DNA of 64,000 nucleotides, taken from NCBI GenBank assembly GCA_036125855.1, contig JAYZTT010000001.1:7917-71916 (forward strand), given 5' to 3'. This DNA is from Planctomycetota bacterium. Lineage in GTDB: Bacteria > Planctomycetota > UBA8108 > UBA1146. Positions 51,668 through 58,781 of this stretch are shown here, one piece after another (position 1 is the first letter of the stretch; every line of letters begins with the position of its first letter). The position numbers and the translations under genes are program-made. The notes under the pieces were generated by a model. The model saw nothing but the letters and a program-made list of their open reading frames with translations. It had not been told where the DNA came from and ran no database searches.

Positions 51668-52744
51668 TCAGGCGGTCAGAACCCTGCCGAGAGCCTCCAG
51701 GGCCGGTTCAAGCTGATCGACCGGCAGTCCAAAACCGATCCGAACATGGTCCGGTGCACCAAAGAAATGCCCCGGCGTGAGATTCACATCGTGCTCCAGA
51801 CACCTGCGTCGGAACTCCACAGCGTCCGATCCGTAACCGGAGGGAACCCTGGGGAAGCACACCAGGCCGCCAGCGGGGGCAACCAACGACAGCGGGTGCT
51901 TCTCGAGCCAGTCAGAAAACAGGTCCCAGCCGTCACTGGCAAACTTGCAGCCCCTTTGTCGTAACGGCTCCCATCGGCCCATTGCAGCCCGAGCCACCTG
52001 ATCGGTCAGACAGGAGTTATGAAGAGTCGTGGAGTCGAAAACGCAACGAGCACGATCCACCAGATCGGGACCACCGAAGCCCCAACCAAATCGCACCTGA
52101 GAAATCCCGTGTACCTTGTTGAGTCCTCCGATGCTCACAATCGATGGATGAAGGCGAGAAAGTGGACCCGGATCGGGATCGAGGAACGGACGATACATCT
52201 CGTCGACAAGCACATGGCAATCAAGCCGATCGCAGATGGAGACGATCCCCTGTTCTTCCTCTCTGGATAACTGTACTCCACTTGGATTGTGTAGATTGGT
52301 AATCAGAAGCAAGTTCGCACCGTGTTGCTCGATGATCTGAGCCAGACGATCCACATCGATGCGATATTGATCCTCGAAACGACGCTCAAAGGGAACTGTC
52401 CGGGCTCCCACCACCGACAGGGCATCGACAACGGGAAGGTAACCTGGCACCTCATGAACCACCGTGCCACCAGGCCCTGCCAGTGCCGCAGCAAAGCAAA
52501 AGTGTGCATGGGAAGCACTGGAAGCGAGCAGGATTCCCTCGGGATCGAGGCCCCACATAGCGGCCAGTGAATCCATCACCTCGCTCGGACCATAGGGTGT
52601 GAATTCGAACAGCTCGAGTGTCGCAGGATCGAGACCGATCTGTTCCCAGCTAACGGGAGGAACGGCACTCATCGTCAGTCTGTGCTTTCCGATCCGCCCC
52701 TCTGATTTGGCCCATCGGATGTAGGGGACCCGGGAGAGTTCCAT
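51668..52744 (-). CDS. Class I/II pyridoxal-phosphate-dependent aminotransferase
   Basis: LITNLHNPSGV, VLVDEMYRPF, and the PLP-lysine region SIGGLNKVHGISQVRFGW. Start at the ATG 52744 (MELSRVPYIRWAK...), with the alternative ATG at 52672. Confidence 0.8.
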   Translation of the reverse strand: MELSRVPYIRWAKSEGRIGKHRLTMSAVPPVSWEQIGLDPATLELFEFTPYGPSEVMDSLAAMWGLDPEGILLASSASHAHFCFAAALAGPGGTVVHEVPGYLPVVDALSVVGARTVPFERRFEDQYRIDVDRLAQIIEQHGANLLLITNLHNPSGVQLSREEEQGIVSICDRLDCHVLVDEMYRPFLDPDPGPLSRLHPSIVSIGGLNKVHGISQVRFGWGFGGPDLVDRARCVFDSTTLHNSCLTDQVARAAMGRWEPLRQRGCKFASDGWDLFSDWLEKHPLSLVAPAGGLVCFPRVPSGYGSDAVEFRRRCLEHDVNLTPGHFFGAPDHVRIGFGLPVDQLEPALEALGRVLTA

Positions 52745-53760
52745 CTCTGTTCCTCTTCTTCTTGTTTCATCTGGCGTAACCGAGCTCTGCGACGAAATCT
52801 CTGTACTACCGCGGCGATCACCACCAACAGCGCAAGTCCTCGCCACGACAGCAGGAGATCGAGCAGCAATCCAAAAACCACGTCAGACTCGGCCAGTTCC
52901 TGTTGCCATTGTTCCGTCGCCTCGTCAATGGTAAAGCCTGAAACTCGCTCAAACGCCTCTGCCCAGGGAACTCCTTTTTGACAATGATCCAGGATCCTGG
53001 CGTGCAAATCCTCTCCCCAGCGACGTCTGGTCCAGTCTATGAACAACAGTGCCTCGGCATAGAGTAACGAGGCACTGTAGTGATCGGCTGGCAGGTGCTT
53101 CTCCAGATCGGTGATGGAAAGTAACGAGCGATTTCGAGCCAGCAAGATCAACGCGTGGCGTGTCGAGGGATCGGGATACTGTCTGGCCACCGACTGGGCG
53201 ATCCCCTCGTGAACCCATCTCGGTAGCACTCCCCCGGCCTCCGACAGAACCAGATGTGCCAGTTCATGAACGACCGTGGCACTACCCTTGCCTGGCTGGC
53301 GGATCAGATACTGCAGGTCGATGATGGCGATCCCCTTCTGCGACAGCGCCACCGCCGGGACCCAGGCAGGAACCGCCTCGGCACCGAGCTCAGCGAGTGC
53401 AGCATTGAGACCGGTTTGTCCGGCAACCAGCACCAGCAAGGGTCGTCTGCCGGAGTCAGAACCGAGCCAGGTCCGCAGTTCCAGCAGGGCACTCGAGACT
53501 CTCTCCTGTAACGGTTCGGAGGGATCTGCCAGGCCAGGGGCAACGGCCCAGATATGGGTCGGAGTCTCGAGCCTGCGGTACTTGGTGAAGATGTCCTGCT
53601 GGCCAGGTAACGAGCTGGCCAGGCTCGTCAGAGCAGCCACCAGCAACACCGAGGCGAACGGAGTCAAAACACGTCTGGCTGTCGGCAGATCTGGTATCAC
53701 GTGTCTCCTCGATGAAGAAGGGGCGTGGAACTGTAAGTTCCACGCCCCTGCATGATCCAT
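52675..53760 (-). CDS. Membrane-anchored HExxH metallopeptidase-like protein (peptidase-MA-like)
   Basis: N-terminal signal/anchor. VVHELAHLVL plus WVHEGIAQ (a gluzincin pattern). A C-terminal TM (GLALLVVIAAVV) and a basic tail. The start is uncertain (53760 or 53811). Confidence 0.65.
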   Translation of the reverse strand: MDHAGAWNLQFHAPSSSRRHVIPDLPTARRVLTPFASVLLVAALTSLASSLPGQQDIFTKYRRLETPTHIWAVAPGLADPSEPLQERVSSALLELRTWLGSDSGRRPLLVLVAGQTGLNAALAELGAEAVPAWVPAVALSQKGIAIIDLQYLIRQPGKGSATVVHELAHLVLSEAGGVLPRWVHEGIAQSVARQYPDPSTRHALILLARNRSLLSITDLEKHLPADHYSASLLYAEALLFIDWTRRRWGEDLHARILDHCQKGVPWAEAFERVSGFTIDEATEQWQQELAESDVVFGLLLDLLLSWRGLALLVVIAAVVQRFRRRARLRQMKQEEEEQRWNSPGSPTSDGPNQRGGSESTD

Positions 53761-53777: not shown

Positions 53778-54971
53778 CTAGACACTCTCCGAGAGTGCGG
53801 CGACCAGGCAACCCTTGGAAACGCTGTACAGCGGATCCTCGGCAAGACGGATCTCTTTGATATCGAGAGGGAACTGGATCTTCTCGAATTCCTGCTGGAA
53901 GACCTCGGTGAAGCCTCCGATCATGCTGGTTCCACCAGCACAGACGATGCTCACTGGCTCGGGGAAGCTAGGCATCGAGGAGGAGGATTCGAAGCGCTCT
54001 TTGATGTTCTTCAGGGTGTAGGAGATCAGGTTGCGGTAGTAGATCTCAACCGCTTCTTCTTCGCGTCCCTGAGGATTGGCGAGATCGATACCCTTCTCCT
54101 TGAGGCCACATGCGCGGGAAGAACTGATTCCCAGCACGTGAGCCACGTTGCGGTCGATCCAGTCTCCGCCACGGGTGGTGGAGAAGGAAAGAGCCGGAAT
54201 CGACTTGTAGGAAACACAGACATTGAACATTCCGCCACCACAGGAGATTCCGATACCGGTGAAATCATCCTCGGCGAGTTCGGAGAAGACCACAGCGTGT
54301 CCCTCGACCAGCGGCTTCGGATCGTATCCAAGACCCTTCAGCAATCCGCCGAAGACTCCCTGGTGGTAAACAACATTCATCTCGGCATCAATCGGCTCTG
54401 CTGGAACCGAGAAGTAACAGTTTTCACCCTGCTGCTTCGGCTGGCCGAGCAGAGTTTCGAGCAGCATTCTCTCGATGGGCAGCGCATCGGTCTCATCCGG
54501 GCTGATCATGCCGTCCTTCATCGGACGACGGGTGTTGCGATTGAAGATGTTGGCGAGTTCAAACGCCGGATCACCAACAACCACCATGCGATTGTTGACC
54601 ACGACATACTGAACACCGAGGCGAGTCAGCATGTTGCGTGTGTAGTCGTCACAATCGATGTCGATGAAGGCATTACGCTGAATCTTGAGATTCACGTTGC
54701 CGGTGCTGTCCTGGAAAGAAGAGACGAGATTCGCGGTACCCACGTCCAATCCACGTCCCTGCGCCACTGCTGCGTTTGAAGAATCTGAAGCAGTGTTTAC
54801 TGGTGTGGTGGCAGGAACATCTGTGGAATCCTTCACCGGATAGTTAACTGCATTCAAAGCGTTGGCTTCTTCAACACCAAATACAACTTCTTTCTTCTGG
54901 TCCTTATCGACATTCGCGGCAGGACCATTGCTATCGAAGTTGTCACGGGCGTAGTCTGCGTAATCTCCCAT
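53778..54971 (-). CDS. Divergent actin-like ATPase of the MreB lineage with a roughly 70-aa N-terminal extension
   Basis: Phosphate-1 GLDVGTANLV, the MreB-type RRPMKDGMIS, phosphate-2 GIGISCGGGMFNVCV, and the adenosine motif VCAGGTSMIGGF. No mreC/mreD genes are adjacent. Confidence 0.75.
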   Translation of the reverse strand: MGDYADYARDNFDSNGPAANVDKDQKKEVVFGVEEANALNAVNYPVKDSTDVPATTPVNTASDSSNAAVAQGRGLDVGTANLVSSFQDSTGNVNLKIQRNAFIDIDCDDYTRNMLTRLGVQYVVVNNRMVVVGDPAFELANIFNRNTRRPMKDGMISPDETDALPIERMLLETLLGQPKQQGENCYFSVPAEPIDAEMNVVYHQGVFGGLLKGLGYDPKPLVEGHAVVFSELAEDDFTGIGISCGGGMFNVCVSYKSIPALSFSTTRGGDWIDRNVAHVLGISSSRACGLKEKGIDLANPQGREEEAVEIYYRNLISYTLKNIKERFESSSSMPSFPEPVSIVCAGGTSMIGGFTEVFQQEFEKIQFPLDIKEIRLAEDPLYSVSKGCLVAALSESV

Positions 54972-54977
54972 GCCCCG

Positions 54978-55670
54978 TTACTCCGTTTCCTTCTGAAGGC
55001 CTCGCAATTTTGCCAGATTGGCAGCGATTCCTCCCGCTTTCGCGTTTTTGACCTCGATCTGCTCGAGGTTATTTTCTAATTCTTCTTCCGCCGGTTTTGA
55101 AAAGATCGCAACGAGCGCCTCTTCCGACGGAACTTCTTGTACTTGTGATGAGGATCCACCGGATCCTTTCGCAACCTTGCTAGCGAGGGCATCGATGCTC
55201 TTCTGGATTCCCTCGATCTGATCTCCCGTTGCACTGGTGGGCTCGGTTCGAGCGTCTTCGAGGGCTTCCTTGACAACGGAACGAAGCTGGTCGGAGTCCA
55301 GATTGCTCGACGGCTCGCTACTATGATGTTGCGCTTCCTGGAGCTTTTCCTGCAGATCAACAGCCTGCTCACGAAGCGTGTGAATACGCTTCTCGTACTT
55401 CTCCTGCTGCTTTTCTTGCTCGGATTTACGCGCTTTCACCAGGCGAGTGAATTCACTTCTGGCTTCATCGCGAATCCTGTCACGATCTTCTTCATTGATC
55501 TCGCTGAGACGTTCCTCGACCACATTCTGGACCGCCTCGTCAATGAGATTGAGCACAGCGGCTTTATCGAGGACGTTGACGGTCCTGTGCCCTCTGCGAG
55601 CAAGTTCATCGATGGCCACGGTACTGGTTCGCTTTTTTAGTGCGTCCGGCACATCAAATGTATGACTCAT
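54978..55670 (-). CDS. Acidic coiled-coil protein, hypothetical
   Basis: Start at the ATG 55670 (MSHTFDVPDALKK...). A long heptad-like E/K/Q/R-rich centre (EDRDRIRDEARSEF...EQEKQQEKYEKRIHTLREQAVDLQEKLQEAQ). It ends 6 nt before the actin-like gene. Confidence 0.65.
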   Translation of the reverse strand: MSHTFDVPDALKKRTSTVAIDELARRGHRTVNVLDKAAVLNLIDEAVQNVVEERLSEINEEDRDRIRDEARSEFTRLVKARKSEQEKQQEKYEKRIHTLREQAVDLQEKLQEAQHHSSEPSSNLDSDQLRSVVKEALEDARTEPTSATGDQIEGIQKSIDALASKVAKGSGGSSSQVQEVPSEEALVAIFSKPAEEELENNLEQIEVKNAKAGGIAANLAKLRGLQKETE

Positions 55671-55888
55671 CCGGCCATCCGTCCTTGAGGCACTCCATCG
55701 CGAAATCCGCTCAGGATCTTGCAACTCGATGCCAGACGATCCATGTCACGGATCGATCCGATTACGAAGGCCCCCAATGGAGGCCAAGAAGAGTAGCATC
55801 GGGTGTGAAAAGGCGGCAAACCGGCAAATGGGGCGAGAGAAGGGGAAAGGTCCTCAGAGGCTGCTCGTGCTCAGCAATCGGTGATTCT

Positions 55889-56713: not shown

Positions 56714-58273
56714 TCAATCGATCTCCTCCGTCGGTATCAGGGCACTAATCCCATCTTCACGAGTTTTCACAAGATGCTCTCGATGACGATCGATCAGTAC
56801 CTTGCCCGGCGGAAATCCTTTCGGTTTTCTGACATTTTTTGCCTCGGTCCAGTGAACCACCTGGGTTCCTGGTCCCCTCCAGCCTGACAGACGAGCAGCG
56901 ATGAACGCTGCATCATCGATACTTTCGGGAGAGGCAACCTTGCCCGGCTGCAGACGCAGGATCACGTGTGCGCCAGGCCTTCCGGCTACATGGAAAAACA
57001 AATCGTTACCACGAGCTGTTCGAATGCTCAATTCATCGTTTTCGCGAGCACTTCTCCCGGCAAGAATCGTCAATCCTTCGCGACTCCTGAAGGTCTTGAA
57101 CCGCACCTTGACTTCTTGCTTGCTGGTACGGGCACCGGTTTTCTTGAGCCCTGCACCTGGCCTGACCTTGCCGTGTTTTCGAACCAGTTCCTGCGCAAGC
57201 TGGCACCACTGCAGTACTGGCTCATCCGAGCTCGAGTGATCATCATTCAGTTCGGACCCTGCTGTAATCGCTTGCTCGACCGCATCGAGAGTGGCAATGG
57301 TATCCATCTTCCTATCAGTGAGAATCGTAATCGACCGCTTCCCCTTACGCGCACGACGAAAATAACGCTCTACATTTTCCTGCGGAGATCGGTCTGCCTC
57401 CAGATCGATCTCCACCAGGGGAGCTCCCTCCTGGTACCAATCCTGCACCTCTACCTTTTCCATTCCACGACGTAGTGACGGCAGATTGCCTTTCAGCAAC
57501 TCTCCTTTTTTTTGCCATTGCTCCCAGTTGAGAGACTTCTCCAGATCAGACTCCAGTTTCTGGAGTCGGCGTGTCATCGTCTTGCGAATGCGCCTCAATC
57601 TCTGCTCATGACCACGGATCAAGGCAGCGAATAATCGTGATTGCTCCTGTTGTTCCAGCCGCGGAGCCAACCATCGATGAAGCGGAGCTTCGCCCTCCCT
57701 CTCTTCGACTGGAATCAGTTGAATCGGATCGAAGGGTATCGTGGCGGAGGTCTCCCCCGGGCGATTCGATGATGCAAAATCGGGAGACTTACCGGGGAGG
57801 TAACGATCTCCCCTGGAGACTCCTCCCCTACCGGTCACCAGCAGGATGCGACGATTACTTCCCTCGGTGATCAACAGCCGTCCCTGGCGACCAAATAGCT
57901 CTGCGATCAGCTCTCGATAATTTTTTGAACCCCTGGGAGCAGACAGAACCAATCGCATCACACGGTCCTGACCGGGCTGATCGACCTTTTCGATACGAGC
58001 TCCAGAGATCAACTCGCGCAACGATTCGGCCAGCTCGCTGGGACGGGGAGGTGCCTCAGGCGGATTTTCCCAGAGAACCATCCTCGAGGTGCCCGGATGG
58101 AGAGAGATGAGAAGATGACGACGACGCGCCCCGGACCCGATGACGATACGGAGATTACCGTTGGGACCATCGAAGATTTTTCCGATACGCTCGCCGTTGA
58201 TCAGCTCTTCGAGCTCAGCGACAAGTCGCGCGATTTCCTCTACTCGAAGGCCTTGGGGAGCGGAGAGATTCAC
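56714..58273 (-). CDS. NFACT-family protein (FbpA/RqcH-like, DUF814 C-terminal domain)
   Basis: A central coiled coil and the NFACT-R signature ILAGRSARENDELSIRTARGNDLFFHVAGRPGAHVILR. GTG start. Confidence 0.85.
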   Translation of the reverse strand: MNLSAPQGLRVEEIARLVAELEELINGERIGKIFDGPNGNLRIVIGSGARRRHLLISLHPGTSRMVLWENPPEAPPRPSELAESLRELISGARIEKVDQPGQDRVMRLVLSAPRGSKNYRELIAELFGRQGRLLITEGSNRRILLVTGRGGVSRGDRYLPGKSPDFASSNRPGETSATIPFDPIQLIPVEEREGEAPLHRWLAPRLEQQEQSRLFAALIRGHEQRLRRIRKTMTRRLQKLESDLEKSLNWEQWQKKGELLKGNLPSLRRGMEKVEVQDWYQEGAPLVEIDLEADRSPQENVERYFRRARKGKRSITILTDRKMDTIATLDAVEQAITAGSELNDDHSSSDEPVLQWCQLAQELVRKHGKVRPGAGLKKTGARTSKQEVKVRFKTFRSREGLTILAGRSARENDELSIRTARGNDLFFHVAGRPGAHVILRLQPGKVASPESIDDAAFIAARLSGWRGPGTQVVHWTEAKNVRKPKGFPPGKVLIDRHREHLVKTREDGISALIPTEEID

Positions 58274-58328
58274 GTTTTCATTTCATCCCACCGCAACGAA
58301 AAGTTCCACTGATCGTCAGGGAACTTCT

Positions 58329-58781
58329 TCACTCCGCTGCGTTCCAGCGATCGTCTATCAAATCATATTGATGGAGATCTGTAGAATCGAAGAACAGCTC
58401 GAGCTCACGTTGAGCTGCTTCAGGACTATCGGAGCCATGAACCAGATTGAAGCCATTCGAAATGCCGAAATCACCGCGAATGGTCCCCGCATCGGCATCA
58501 CAGCCGAAGGTAGCTCCCATCAGCTTACGACAGACACTGATCGCCTTGTTGCCCTCCAGTGCCAGCGCAACAACCGGTCCCGATGTCATGAATCCAACCA
58601 GACCTTCATAGAAAGGCTTGCCCTGATGGGCCTCGTAATGGGTGGCGGCCAGTTCGTCACTGATCTGCATCAATCTCATGCCGATCACCTTGAGGCCCTT
58701 CCGTTCGAATCTCTCGATGATGGGCCCTACCAGGCGTCTCTGAACGGCATCTGGCTTGAGGAGGATGAGCGTGCGCTCCAT
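58329..58781 (-). CDS. ndk: Nucleoside-diphosphate kinase
   Basis: MERTLILLKPDAVQRRLVG, and NLVHGSDS (the active-site His). Confidence 0.95.
   Translation of the reverse strand: MERTLILLKPDAVQRRLVGPIIERFERKGLKVIGMRLMQISDELAATHYEAHQGKPFYEGLVGFMTSGPVVALALEGNKAISVCRKLMGATFGCDADAGTIRGDFGISNGFNLVHGSDSPEAAQRELELFFDSTDLHQYDLIDDRWNAAE

Follow-up and report, generated by a model that had tools for sequence, protein, structure and literature searches.

In the ParM/ParR system, the C-terminal helix of ParR docks on the ParM filament. Among the actins that position magnetosomes, a two-hybrid assay has shown an interaction of Mad28 with the coiled-coil protein Mad25 (PMC12748827, PMC12713370). The volactin family of actins is already named, has one characterised member, which is archaeal, and has been studied so far only in salt-loving archaea. 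In Haloferax volcanii, volactin forms dynamic filaments which span the cytoplasm and contact the membrane with their tips, and it promotes the transition from rods to disks (PMC10869688). The CdpA-like HVO_2016 adjoins volactin (VolA, HVO_2015), and volactin was among the proteins detected by mass spectrometry in a CdpA pull-down (log2 fold change 2.5, p = 0.06) (PMC12126565). Here we describe a volactin-type actin and its candidate adaptor from a bacterium. Both are encoded on the minus strand of a 64,000-nucleotide stretch (the window; contig JAYZTT010000001.1, positions 7,917 to 71,916) of a marine planctomycete metagenome-assembled genome (MAG; GCA_036125855.1) of 2.8 Mb and 79% completeness, which contains one volactin gene.

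No description of bacterial volactin members or of the adaptor was found in the literature searched. The only matches there to planctomycete actins, a lokiactin-like protein of 'Candidatus Uab amorphum' and the MamK-like saltatorellin, are different proteins and were set aside. The initial annotation of the window had regarded actin and partner as an uncharacterised pair, possibly a new cytoskeletal or positioning module; the novelty stands for the bacterial pair and its adaptor, which are undescribed in that literature, but not for the actin family, which already has a name.

The actin-like protein of 397 amino acids matched the Pfam family Volactin (PF25216) with 294 bits (E 2.2e-87) over positions 3-321 of a profile of 321, the cut-off being 35 bits. 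Against PF06723 (MreB_Mbl) it reached 13.3 bits, under the cut-off of 27, and against the NCBIfam model of MamK (NF040964) 27 bits, where the cut-off is 400. A sequence search of the PDB with the actin returned no match. By tblastn, residues 72-395 are 40-43% identical (E 1e-73 to 1e-77) to proteins of Haloarcula, Halogeometricum and Natrinema, which sit on large replicons and score 436-447 bits on PF25216. Two uncultured phages with genomes of 485 and 595 kb encode proteins with which the actin shares 40% and 32% identity, respectively. In a maximum-likelihood tree (IQ-TREE), the window actin together with other Planctomycetota, Omnitrophota, haloarchaeal and phage sequences formed a volactin clade, split from MreB, the MamK-like protein of the same genome and Hsp70 by a long branch with 99/99 support; the bootstrap of this tree was not fully converged, the order inside the volactin clade is largely unresolved, and its row ALPx_G016a is a spurious open reading frame (ORF) to be ignored. 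The profile scores and the separate clade rule out MreB and MamK as identities of the protein, and its assignment as a volactin-type actin is well supported. Thus the initial annotation was right in placing it far from canonical MreB, to which it is 16-19% identical, but imprecise in speaking of an MreB lineage.

The AlphaFold2 (AF2) model of the actin is confident for residues 66-397, with a mean predicted local distance difference test score (pLDDT) of 86 and a predicted template modelling score of 0.82. Residues 1-65 form a low-complexity N-terminal extension predicted to be disordered (pLDDT <50), in agreement with the extension of roughly 70 residues noted at first. Foldseek returned the filament form of MamK (5LJV) as the top match of this model with a template modelling (TM) score of 0.76, followed by MreB (TM score ~0.69) and BeeR, all at 16-20% identity; EutJ and Hsp70 were also among the structural matches. 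The protein therefore resembles MreB in its fold, and its phosphate-1 and adenosine motifs are recognisable, but it differs from MreB in its phosphate-2 loop.

All of the nucleotide motifs first read from the sequence are indeed present in the actin (GLDVGTANLV, RRPMKDGMIS, GIGISCGGGMFNV and CAGGTSMIGGF), but the claim of a complete set of actin-fold motifs needs qualification as the third of them, the phosphate-2 motif, is non-canonical. Its sequence is S-C-G-G-G-M, at the place of D-x-G-G-G-T in MreB and MamK, and in an hhalign alignment ISCGGGM falls on VDIGAGT of the MamK-like protein of the same genome. Ser243 and Met248 thus replace the phosphate-2 Asp and Thr of MreB- and MamK-type actins, and both are conserved at 90% or more among 32 family sequences (alignment A1), while Asp76, Gly78, Thr79, Glu223 and Gly346/Gly347 remain unchanged. 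The three haloarchaeal homologues have S-F-G-A-G-M, with the same Ser and Met, so that they share with the planctomycete actin a loop of the form S-x-G-[AG]-G-M. For the Haloferax volactin itself, D-F-G-A-G-T is given in the machine-read text of the motif table in supplementary Figure 8b (PMC10869688). This discrepancy may be an artefact of text extraction or alignment, or may reflect a genuine difference.

The gene of the candidate adaptor ends just upstream of the actin gene: its TAA is followed by 6 nucleotides (nt) and then by the actin ATG, with a GGAG 9 nt 5' of this start. The adaptor is acidic (isoelectric point 5.1; 20% Asp plus Glu) and is predicted by AF2 to be all-helical, and its ATG start fits the conserved MSxxFDV start of its homologues. 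Its N-terminal domain (N-domain) has near-invariant residues at L23, G27, V31, V33, I43, A46 and V47. A long helix or coiled coil (residues 60-117) is followed by shorter helices, a Gly/Ser-rich linker and a C-terminal helix. The coiled coil is very variable in length among the partners, resulting in total lengths of 141-625 residues. Searches of the adaptor against Pfam, NCBIfam, PHROGs and PDB profiles, and a Foldseek search with its AF2 model, gave weak coiled-coil noise only; no DNA-binding family was detected in it, nor a transmembrane segment or a match to DUF7139.

Directly 5' of the actin gene, overlapping it or a few nucleotides apart, a homologue of the adaptor is encoded in 16 of 16 class-level loci from seven families. 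When one genome per species was scanned, the partner was found upstream on the same strand in 73 of 80 species-level loci, usually with an overlap or a gap of less than 20 nt. Among the seven loci without a partner call, two have less than 200 nt of upstream sequence and three belong to Omnitrophota with another layout. The N-domain profile matched in 89 of 93 genomes with a strong volactin match as compared to 37 of 208 others (Fisher p = 1e-40, uncorrected for shared ancestry and hence computed on non-independent, related genomes). Volactin family membership and linkage to the partner are therefore both well supported, and the dedicated, translationally adjacent helical partner noted in this one genome proves to be syntenic with the actin across the class and much of the phylum.

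The adaptor terminates in a basic amphipathic helix. A strict form of its motif, [LVIM]xxL[KR]x[LVM][KRQ][KGQRS] within the last 45 residues, is present in 52 of 73 partner tails, with near-variants in most others, against a background of 4 in 1469 other ORF tails of the same loci. Eight natural fusions (representatives of clusters at 50% identity) carry N-domain, linker and actin in a single chain, and the helix motif is absent from all eight. The simplest reading of this loss is that a tether is no longer needed when actin and N-domain already form one covalent chain. In one family (L125, L126, L149; genomes G185 and G155), the volactin domain is C-terminal in an ORF of ~820 amino acids, and an N-domain protein ending ALDALKKLKGKG is encoded ~90 kb away, so that the two are unlinked and the motif is kept.

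The same genome encodes a MamK-family actin (contig C24, locus L002:226-2514) with 388 bits on the NCBIfam MamK model and 219 bits on BeeR. A coiled-coil protein of 409 residues (L002:226-1455), encoded 5' of it with a gap of 3 nt, carries the adaptor N-domain and is the second N-domain match of the genome. An N-domain protein lies directly upstream of a MamK-like actin in 7 of 7 loci, from this genome and six others, and the helix motif is absent from these proteins. The N-domain is thus found alongside two different families, volactins and MamK-like actins, and the C-terminal motif only in the partners of volactins. The pattern agrees with an adaptor built of modules, its head common to both actins and its tail specific to one filament, and is likewise compatible with a head which itself recognises the actin fold.

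Comparison with the haloarchaeal volactins was made through the Haloarcula, Halogeometricum and Natrinema homologues, which belong to the same Pfam family over their full length. Each of their three volactin genes is preceded on the same strand by a gene for a protein of ~300 amino acids with a DUF7139 four-transmembrane domain and an acidic linker. The helix motif, here of the L-[KR]-x-L-[KR] type, occurs once in each of these upstream proteins, in a cytoplasmic region (VNGLRGLRG, VDGLRQLQG or VAGLKGLKG). In phage LR745208, the ORF which overlaps the volactin gene at its start terminates in ...MGALKAVRKK..., also a match. These matches across domains are suggestive, though small in number. 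Unlike the haloarchaeal partners, with which it shares only the short motif, the adaptor of this bacterial host is a soluble coiled-coil protein with an N-domain of its own. Likewise, the ~65-residue disordered extension of the actin and the membrane metallopeptidase gene downstream of it are features of the planctomycete locus as opposed to the haloarchaeal ones.

With a probability of about 0.6, we read the locus as a chromosomal, co-translated module of filament and adaptor, in which the C-terminal helix of the adaptor docks on the volactin filament. Actin and adaptor would be co-expressed, probably through translational coupling, and the actin would polymerise into cytoplasmic filaments. 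The adaptor would attach to the filament by its basic amphipathic helix, in the manner of the ParR helix on ParM, and its coiled coil and N-domain would provide the connection to a target in the cell. A plausible partner on the membrane side in this class is the HExxH peptidase encoded downstream of the actin, which faces the periplasm and has a conserved tail in the cytoplasm. The adaptor would be the first candidate for a volactin-binding factor.

Several points weigh against this reading. The motif is short, its three archaeal matches are homologous and hence non-independent, and its phage match is a single case. The fusions are metagenomic gene calls, some of which could be frameshift artefacts. 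In Planctomycetaceae such as Polystyrenella longa, no partner was detectable for the volactins, which are divergent and long-branched; only six close matches came from a word-based search with the Polystyrenella protein. Since Ser and Met replace the phosphate-2 Asp and Thr across the family, the actin may hydrolyse nucleotide in an atypical way. For the peptidase, linkage is confined to a single large clade, and its polybasic tail could reflect the positive-inside rule. Finally, a basic amphipathic C-terminal helix after a flexible linker is the classic layout of membrane targeting, as in MinD and FtsA.

This last point leads to an alternative in which the helix of the adaptor targets the membrane and the N-domain binds actin, so that the adaptor anchors filaments to the cytoplasmic membrane. 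The helix does lie at the extreme C-terminus, behind a Gly/Ser-rich linker of low model confidence, and the pairing of the N-domain with volactin and MamK-like actins alike fits recognition of their shared fold. The filament tips of the Haloferax volactin touch the membrane (PMC10869688). Nevertheless, such a tether seems unlikely to us. The motif is also found in the haloarchaeal neighbours, integral proteins with four transmembrane segments in which a membrane-targeting helix would be redundant, and the hydrophobic face of the adaptor helix consists only of Leu, Val and Ala, with no aromatic residues. Moreover, the fusions keep the N-domain and drop the helix, which is easier to understand if a covalent link replaces a docking helix.

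The architecture of actin plus adaptor would also suit DNA segregation as by ParM/ParR or salactin, with the adaptor N-domain binding DNA and the filament moving chromosomes. Volactin genes of Omnitrophota sit behind a gene for a ParA-type ATPase, and salactin, a further actin of haloarchaea, helps to partition DNA (cited in PMC10869688). However, the adaptor is without a detectable DNA-binding domain, and the region upstream of the operon holds no iteron-like, parC-like or centromere-like repeat arrays but only 9-11-nt repeats at chance level. Compared with parM-parR, the two genes stand in the opposite order, the actin belongs to another family than ParM, and the locus is chromosomal, single-copy, housekeeping-like and in stable synteny rather than on a mobile element. 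Haloferax volactin affects cell shape and not segregation (PMC10869688). On this balance a segregation system is improbable, and the likeness to ParM/ParR, an actin-like protein with a dedicated small adaptor, is confined to the possible mode of action.

A third alternative is built on the downstream gene, which starts 17 nt after the actin TAG. Its product has an N-terminal hydrophobic anchor or signal, a C-terminal transmembrane helix and a short cytoplasmic tail which is first basic and then acidic. HExxH is conserved in all of its homologues, and so is the tail (RRRxxLxxM..EE). The gene lies 3' of the actin gene in 15 of 16 class-level loci, the contig of the sixteenth ending too early to tell, and in 41 of 80 species-level loci, mostly of closer relatives. 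From this linkage and the conserved catalytic motif and tail, it could be argued that an MreB-like filament positions a periplasmic metallopeptidase for wall or envelope growth or for budding, with the coiled-coil protein as a regulator. We give little credence to such a guide for envelope remodelling, because the peptidase is not conserved at this position in distant lineages which keep the pair of adaptor and actin, because the lineage retains canonical MreB, and because no peptidoglycan-synthesis genes lie near the module in the window. After its last transmembrane helix (window 52675-52850), the tail of the peptidase shows a polybasic L-x-x-M stretch and then an acidic run (RRRARLRQMKQEEEE), loosely resembling the adaptor motif; it could be a second filament contact, or could simply follow the positive-inside rule.

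It is highly improbable that the protein is a non-polymerising actin-fold ATPase, chaperone-like or enzyme-activating with the helical protein as cofactor: a phosphate-2 loop without the canonical Asp and Thr and the structural matches to EutJ and Hsp70 would be in keeping with it, but filament-forming proteins lead the structural matches (MamK in its filament conformation, MreB and BeeR), the haloarchaeal homologues have the same S...M loop, and the type member, volactin, forms filaments in vivo (PMC10869688).

If the adaptor helix docks on the filament as we propose, a wider hypothesis can be formulated, although we hold it only tentatively and think it rather doubtful. Volactins of Bacteria, Archaea and huge phages would share one ancient coupling, in which an upstream-encoded basic amphipathic helix (Phi-x-x-L-[KR]-x-[LM]-[KRQ]) docks on the filament and exchangeable heads choose the target. 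The heads seen are a four-transmembrane anchor in haloarchaea and a soluble N-domain with a coiled coil in Planctomycetota, where the same head would also serve the MamK-like actin. This shared candidate docking motif would tie together one cytoskeletal family in its bacterial, archaeal and phage forms. Division in Planctomycetota proceeds without FtsZ and in many of them takes the form of budding, and the organisation of their growth and division is poorly understood. Were the hypothesis true, a modular cytoskeleton of several actins could organise budding, division or envelope growth in these FtsZ-less bacteria.

The pair also invites comparison with MamK/MamJ and with Mad28 and its Mad partners, in which an actin-like protein has a coiled-coil partner. 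MamK is the best structural match of the window actin, and the lineage's own MamK-like actin has an upstream partner with the adaptor N-domain. Unlike the setting of MamK, the window contains no magnetosome genes, and the score of the actin on the MamK model lies far from its cut-off. The parallels drawn by the initial annotation to ParM/ParR, MamK/MamJ and AlfA/AlfB hold, then, as analogies of a possible mode of action and not as membership of those families.

The volactin gene is present, essentially as a single copy, in 37 of 41 relatives, and of 301 genomes from across the phylum, 113 had a PF25216 match above the cut-off. Among many Planctomycetota, and across orders, the actin core is 70-90% identical, which points to strong purifying selection; proteins nearly identical to the actin carry Planctomycetota labels. 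An actin which is single-copy, conserved to this degree and tied to an adaptor by synteny, co-occurrence and fusions is a testable candidate for the growth and division machinery.

Canonical MreB was not found in the MAG of the window. In 36 of 41 relatives, among them every one of the five genomes from the same genus, TIGR00904, the MreB model, gave scores of 470-493 bits. Since these same-genus relatives carry genuine MreB, its absence from the MAG is best explained by incompleteness, and a true lack of MreB in the organism was rejected, the MAG being only 79% complete. For the same reason, the volactin-type gene is no replacement of MreB. Neither in the Pfam scores nor in the tree does the actin group with housekeeping MreB, and a separate canonical mreB is found in the relatives. 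The 397-residue protein is best explained as a chromosomal volactin acquired by vertical descent, which exists beside canonical MreB and a MamK-like actin, and the lineage possesses at least three actin-like systems (MreB, MamK-family and volactin type).

The features of the locus are collected in Table 1. The genes of lipoprotein, adaptor, actin and peptidase are four co-oriented ORFs, the last three of which are tightly spaced; ORF coordinates and reading of the junctions confirm the three-gene string and its two spacings as first described.

Table 1. Features of the volactin module and its surroundings, in window coordinates.
Feature	Position	Strand	Remarks
Peptidase_MA_2 (HExxH) protein, 361 aa	52675..53760	-	Pfam PF13485, 52.9 bits
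Volactin-family actin-like protein, 397 aa	53778..54971	-	PF25216; residues ~72-395 form the actin-fold core
Phosphate-2 loop of the actin, GIGISCGGGMFNV	54237..54275	-	About residues 233-245; coordinates approximate to a few codons
Candidate volactin adaptor, 230 aa	54978..55670	-	N-terminal domain, coiled coil, linker and C-terminal helix
Basic amphipathic C-terminal helix of the adaptor, GGIAANLAKLRGLQKETE	54981..55034	-	Motif Phi-x-x-L-[KR]-x-[LM]-[KRQ]-[KGQ]
N-terminal domain of the adaptor, aa 1-92	55395..55670	-	Alignments A3 and A4; fused to actin in 8 proteins
Intergenic region 5' of the adaptor gene, 218 nt	55671..55888		Probably contains the operon promoter; no other gap in the gene string is sizeable
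TPR-like putative lipoprotein, 239 aa	55889..56608	-	Weak tetratricopeptide repeat (TPR) matches only; a neighbour, not core of the module

Downstream of the peptidase lies an aminotransferase gene, and on the upstream side an NFACT-family gene and ndk. With these neighbours, the TPR-like lipoprotein and the peptidase, the actin stands outside any mreBCD context, as had been noted; no mreC, mreD, rodA or pbp2 lies near it in the window. In GC content the module does not stand out from the rest of the window. The region between the lipoprotein and adaptor genes showed no consensus sigma-70 promoter, and scans for promoters and terminators remained at chance level. The helical lipoprotein reported upstream of the pair is present and TPR-like. 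It adjoins the pair in 9 of 16 class-level loci, all of closer relatives and once on the opposite strand, and was for this reason rejected as a core part of the module. The order of ndk and the NFACT-family (RqcH/FbpA-like) gene (window 56714-58781) is kept upstream of the module across the class and marks a stable chromosomal neighbourhood.

Some further members of the family deserve mention. The huge phages LR745208 (485 kb) and LR756511 (595 kb) encode volactin-family proteins, that of LR745208 scoring 232 bits on PF25216; these phage proteins had no family in PHROGs, and BFVD held no close viral structure. In Omnitrophota MAGs (L095, L107, L118), genes for a ParA/Soj-type ATPase and for an unannotated protein of ~270 residues come first, and two volactin genes (330 and ~490 residues) come after them. 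Tandem duplicates of the volactin gene occur in some Planctomycetota (L130, L131), and volactin architectures include proteins with two actins in tandem (P0121, P0122). About a dozen volactin-family proteins of ~700 residues have ~350 residues inserted about halfway through the actin fold, close to profile position 189. The whole block of partner, actin and peptidase is also present, at 83% protein identity to the window, on QNYK01000064.1 (L048), a record labelled 'Bacillota bacterium' which is probably mislabelled or mis-binned.

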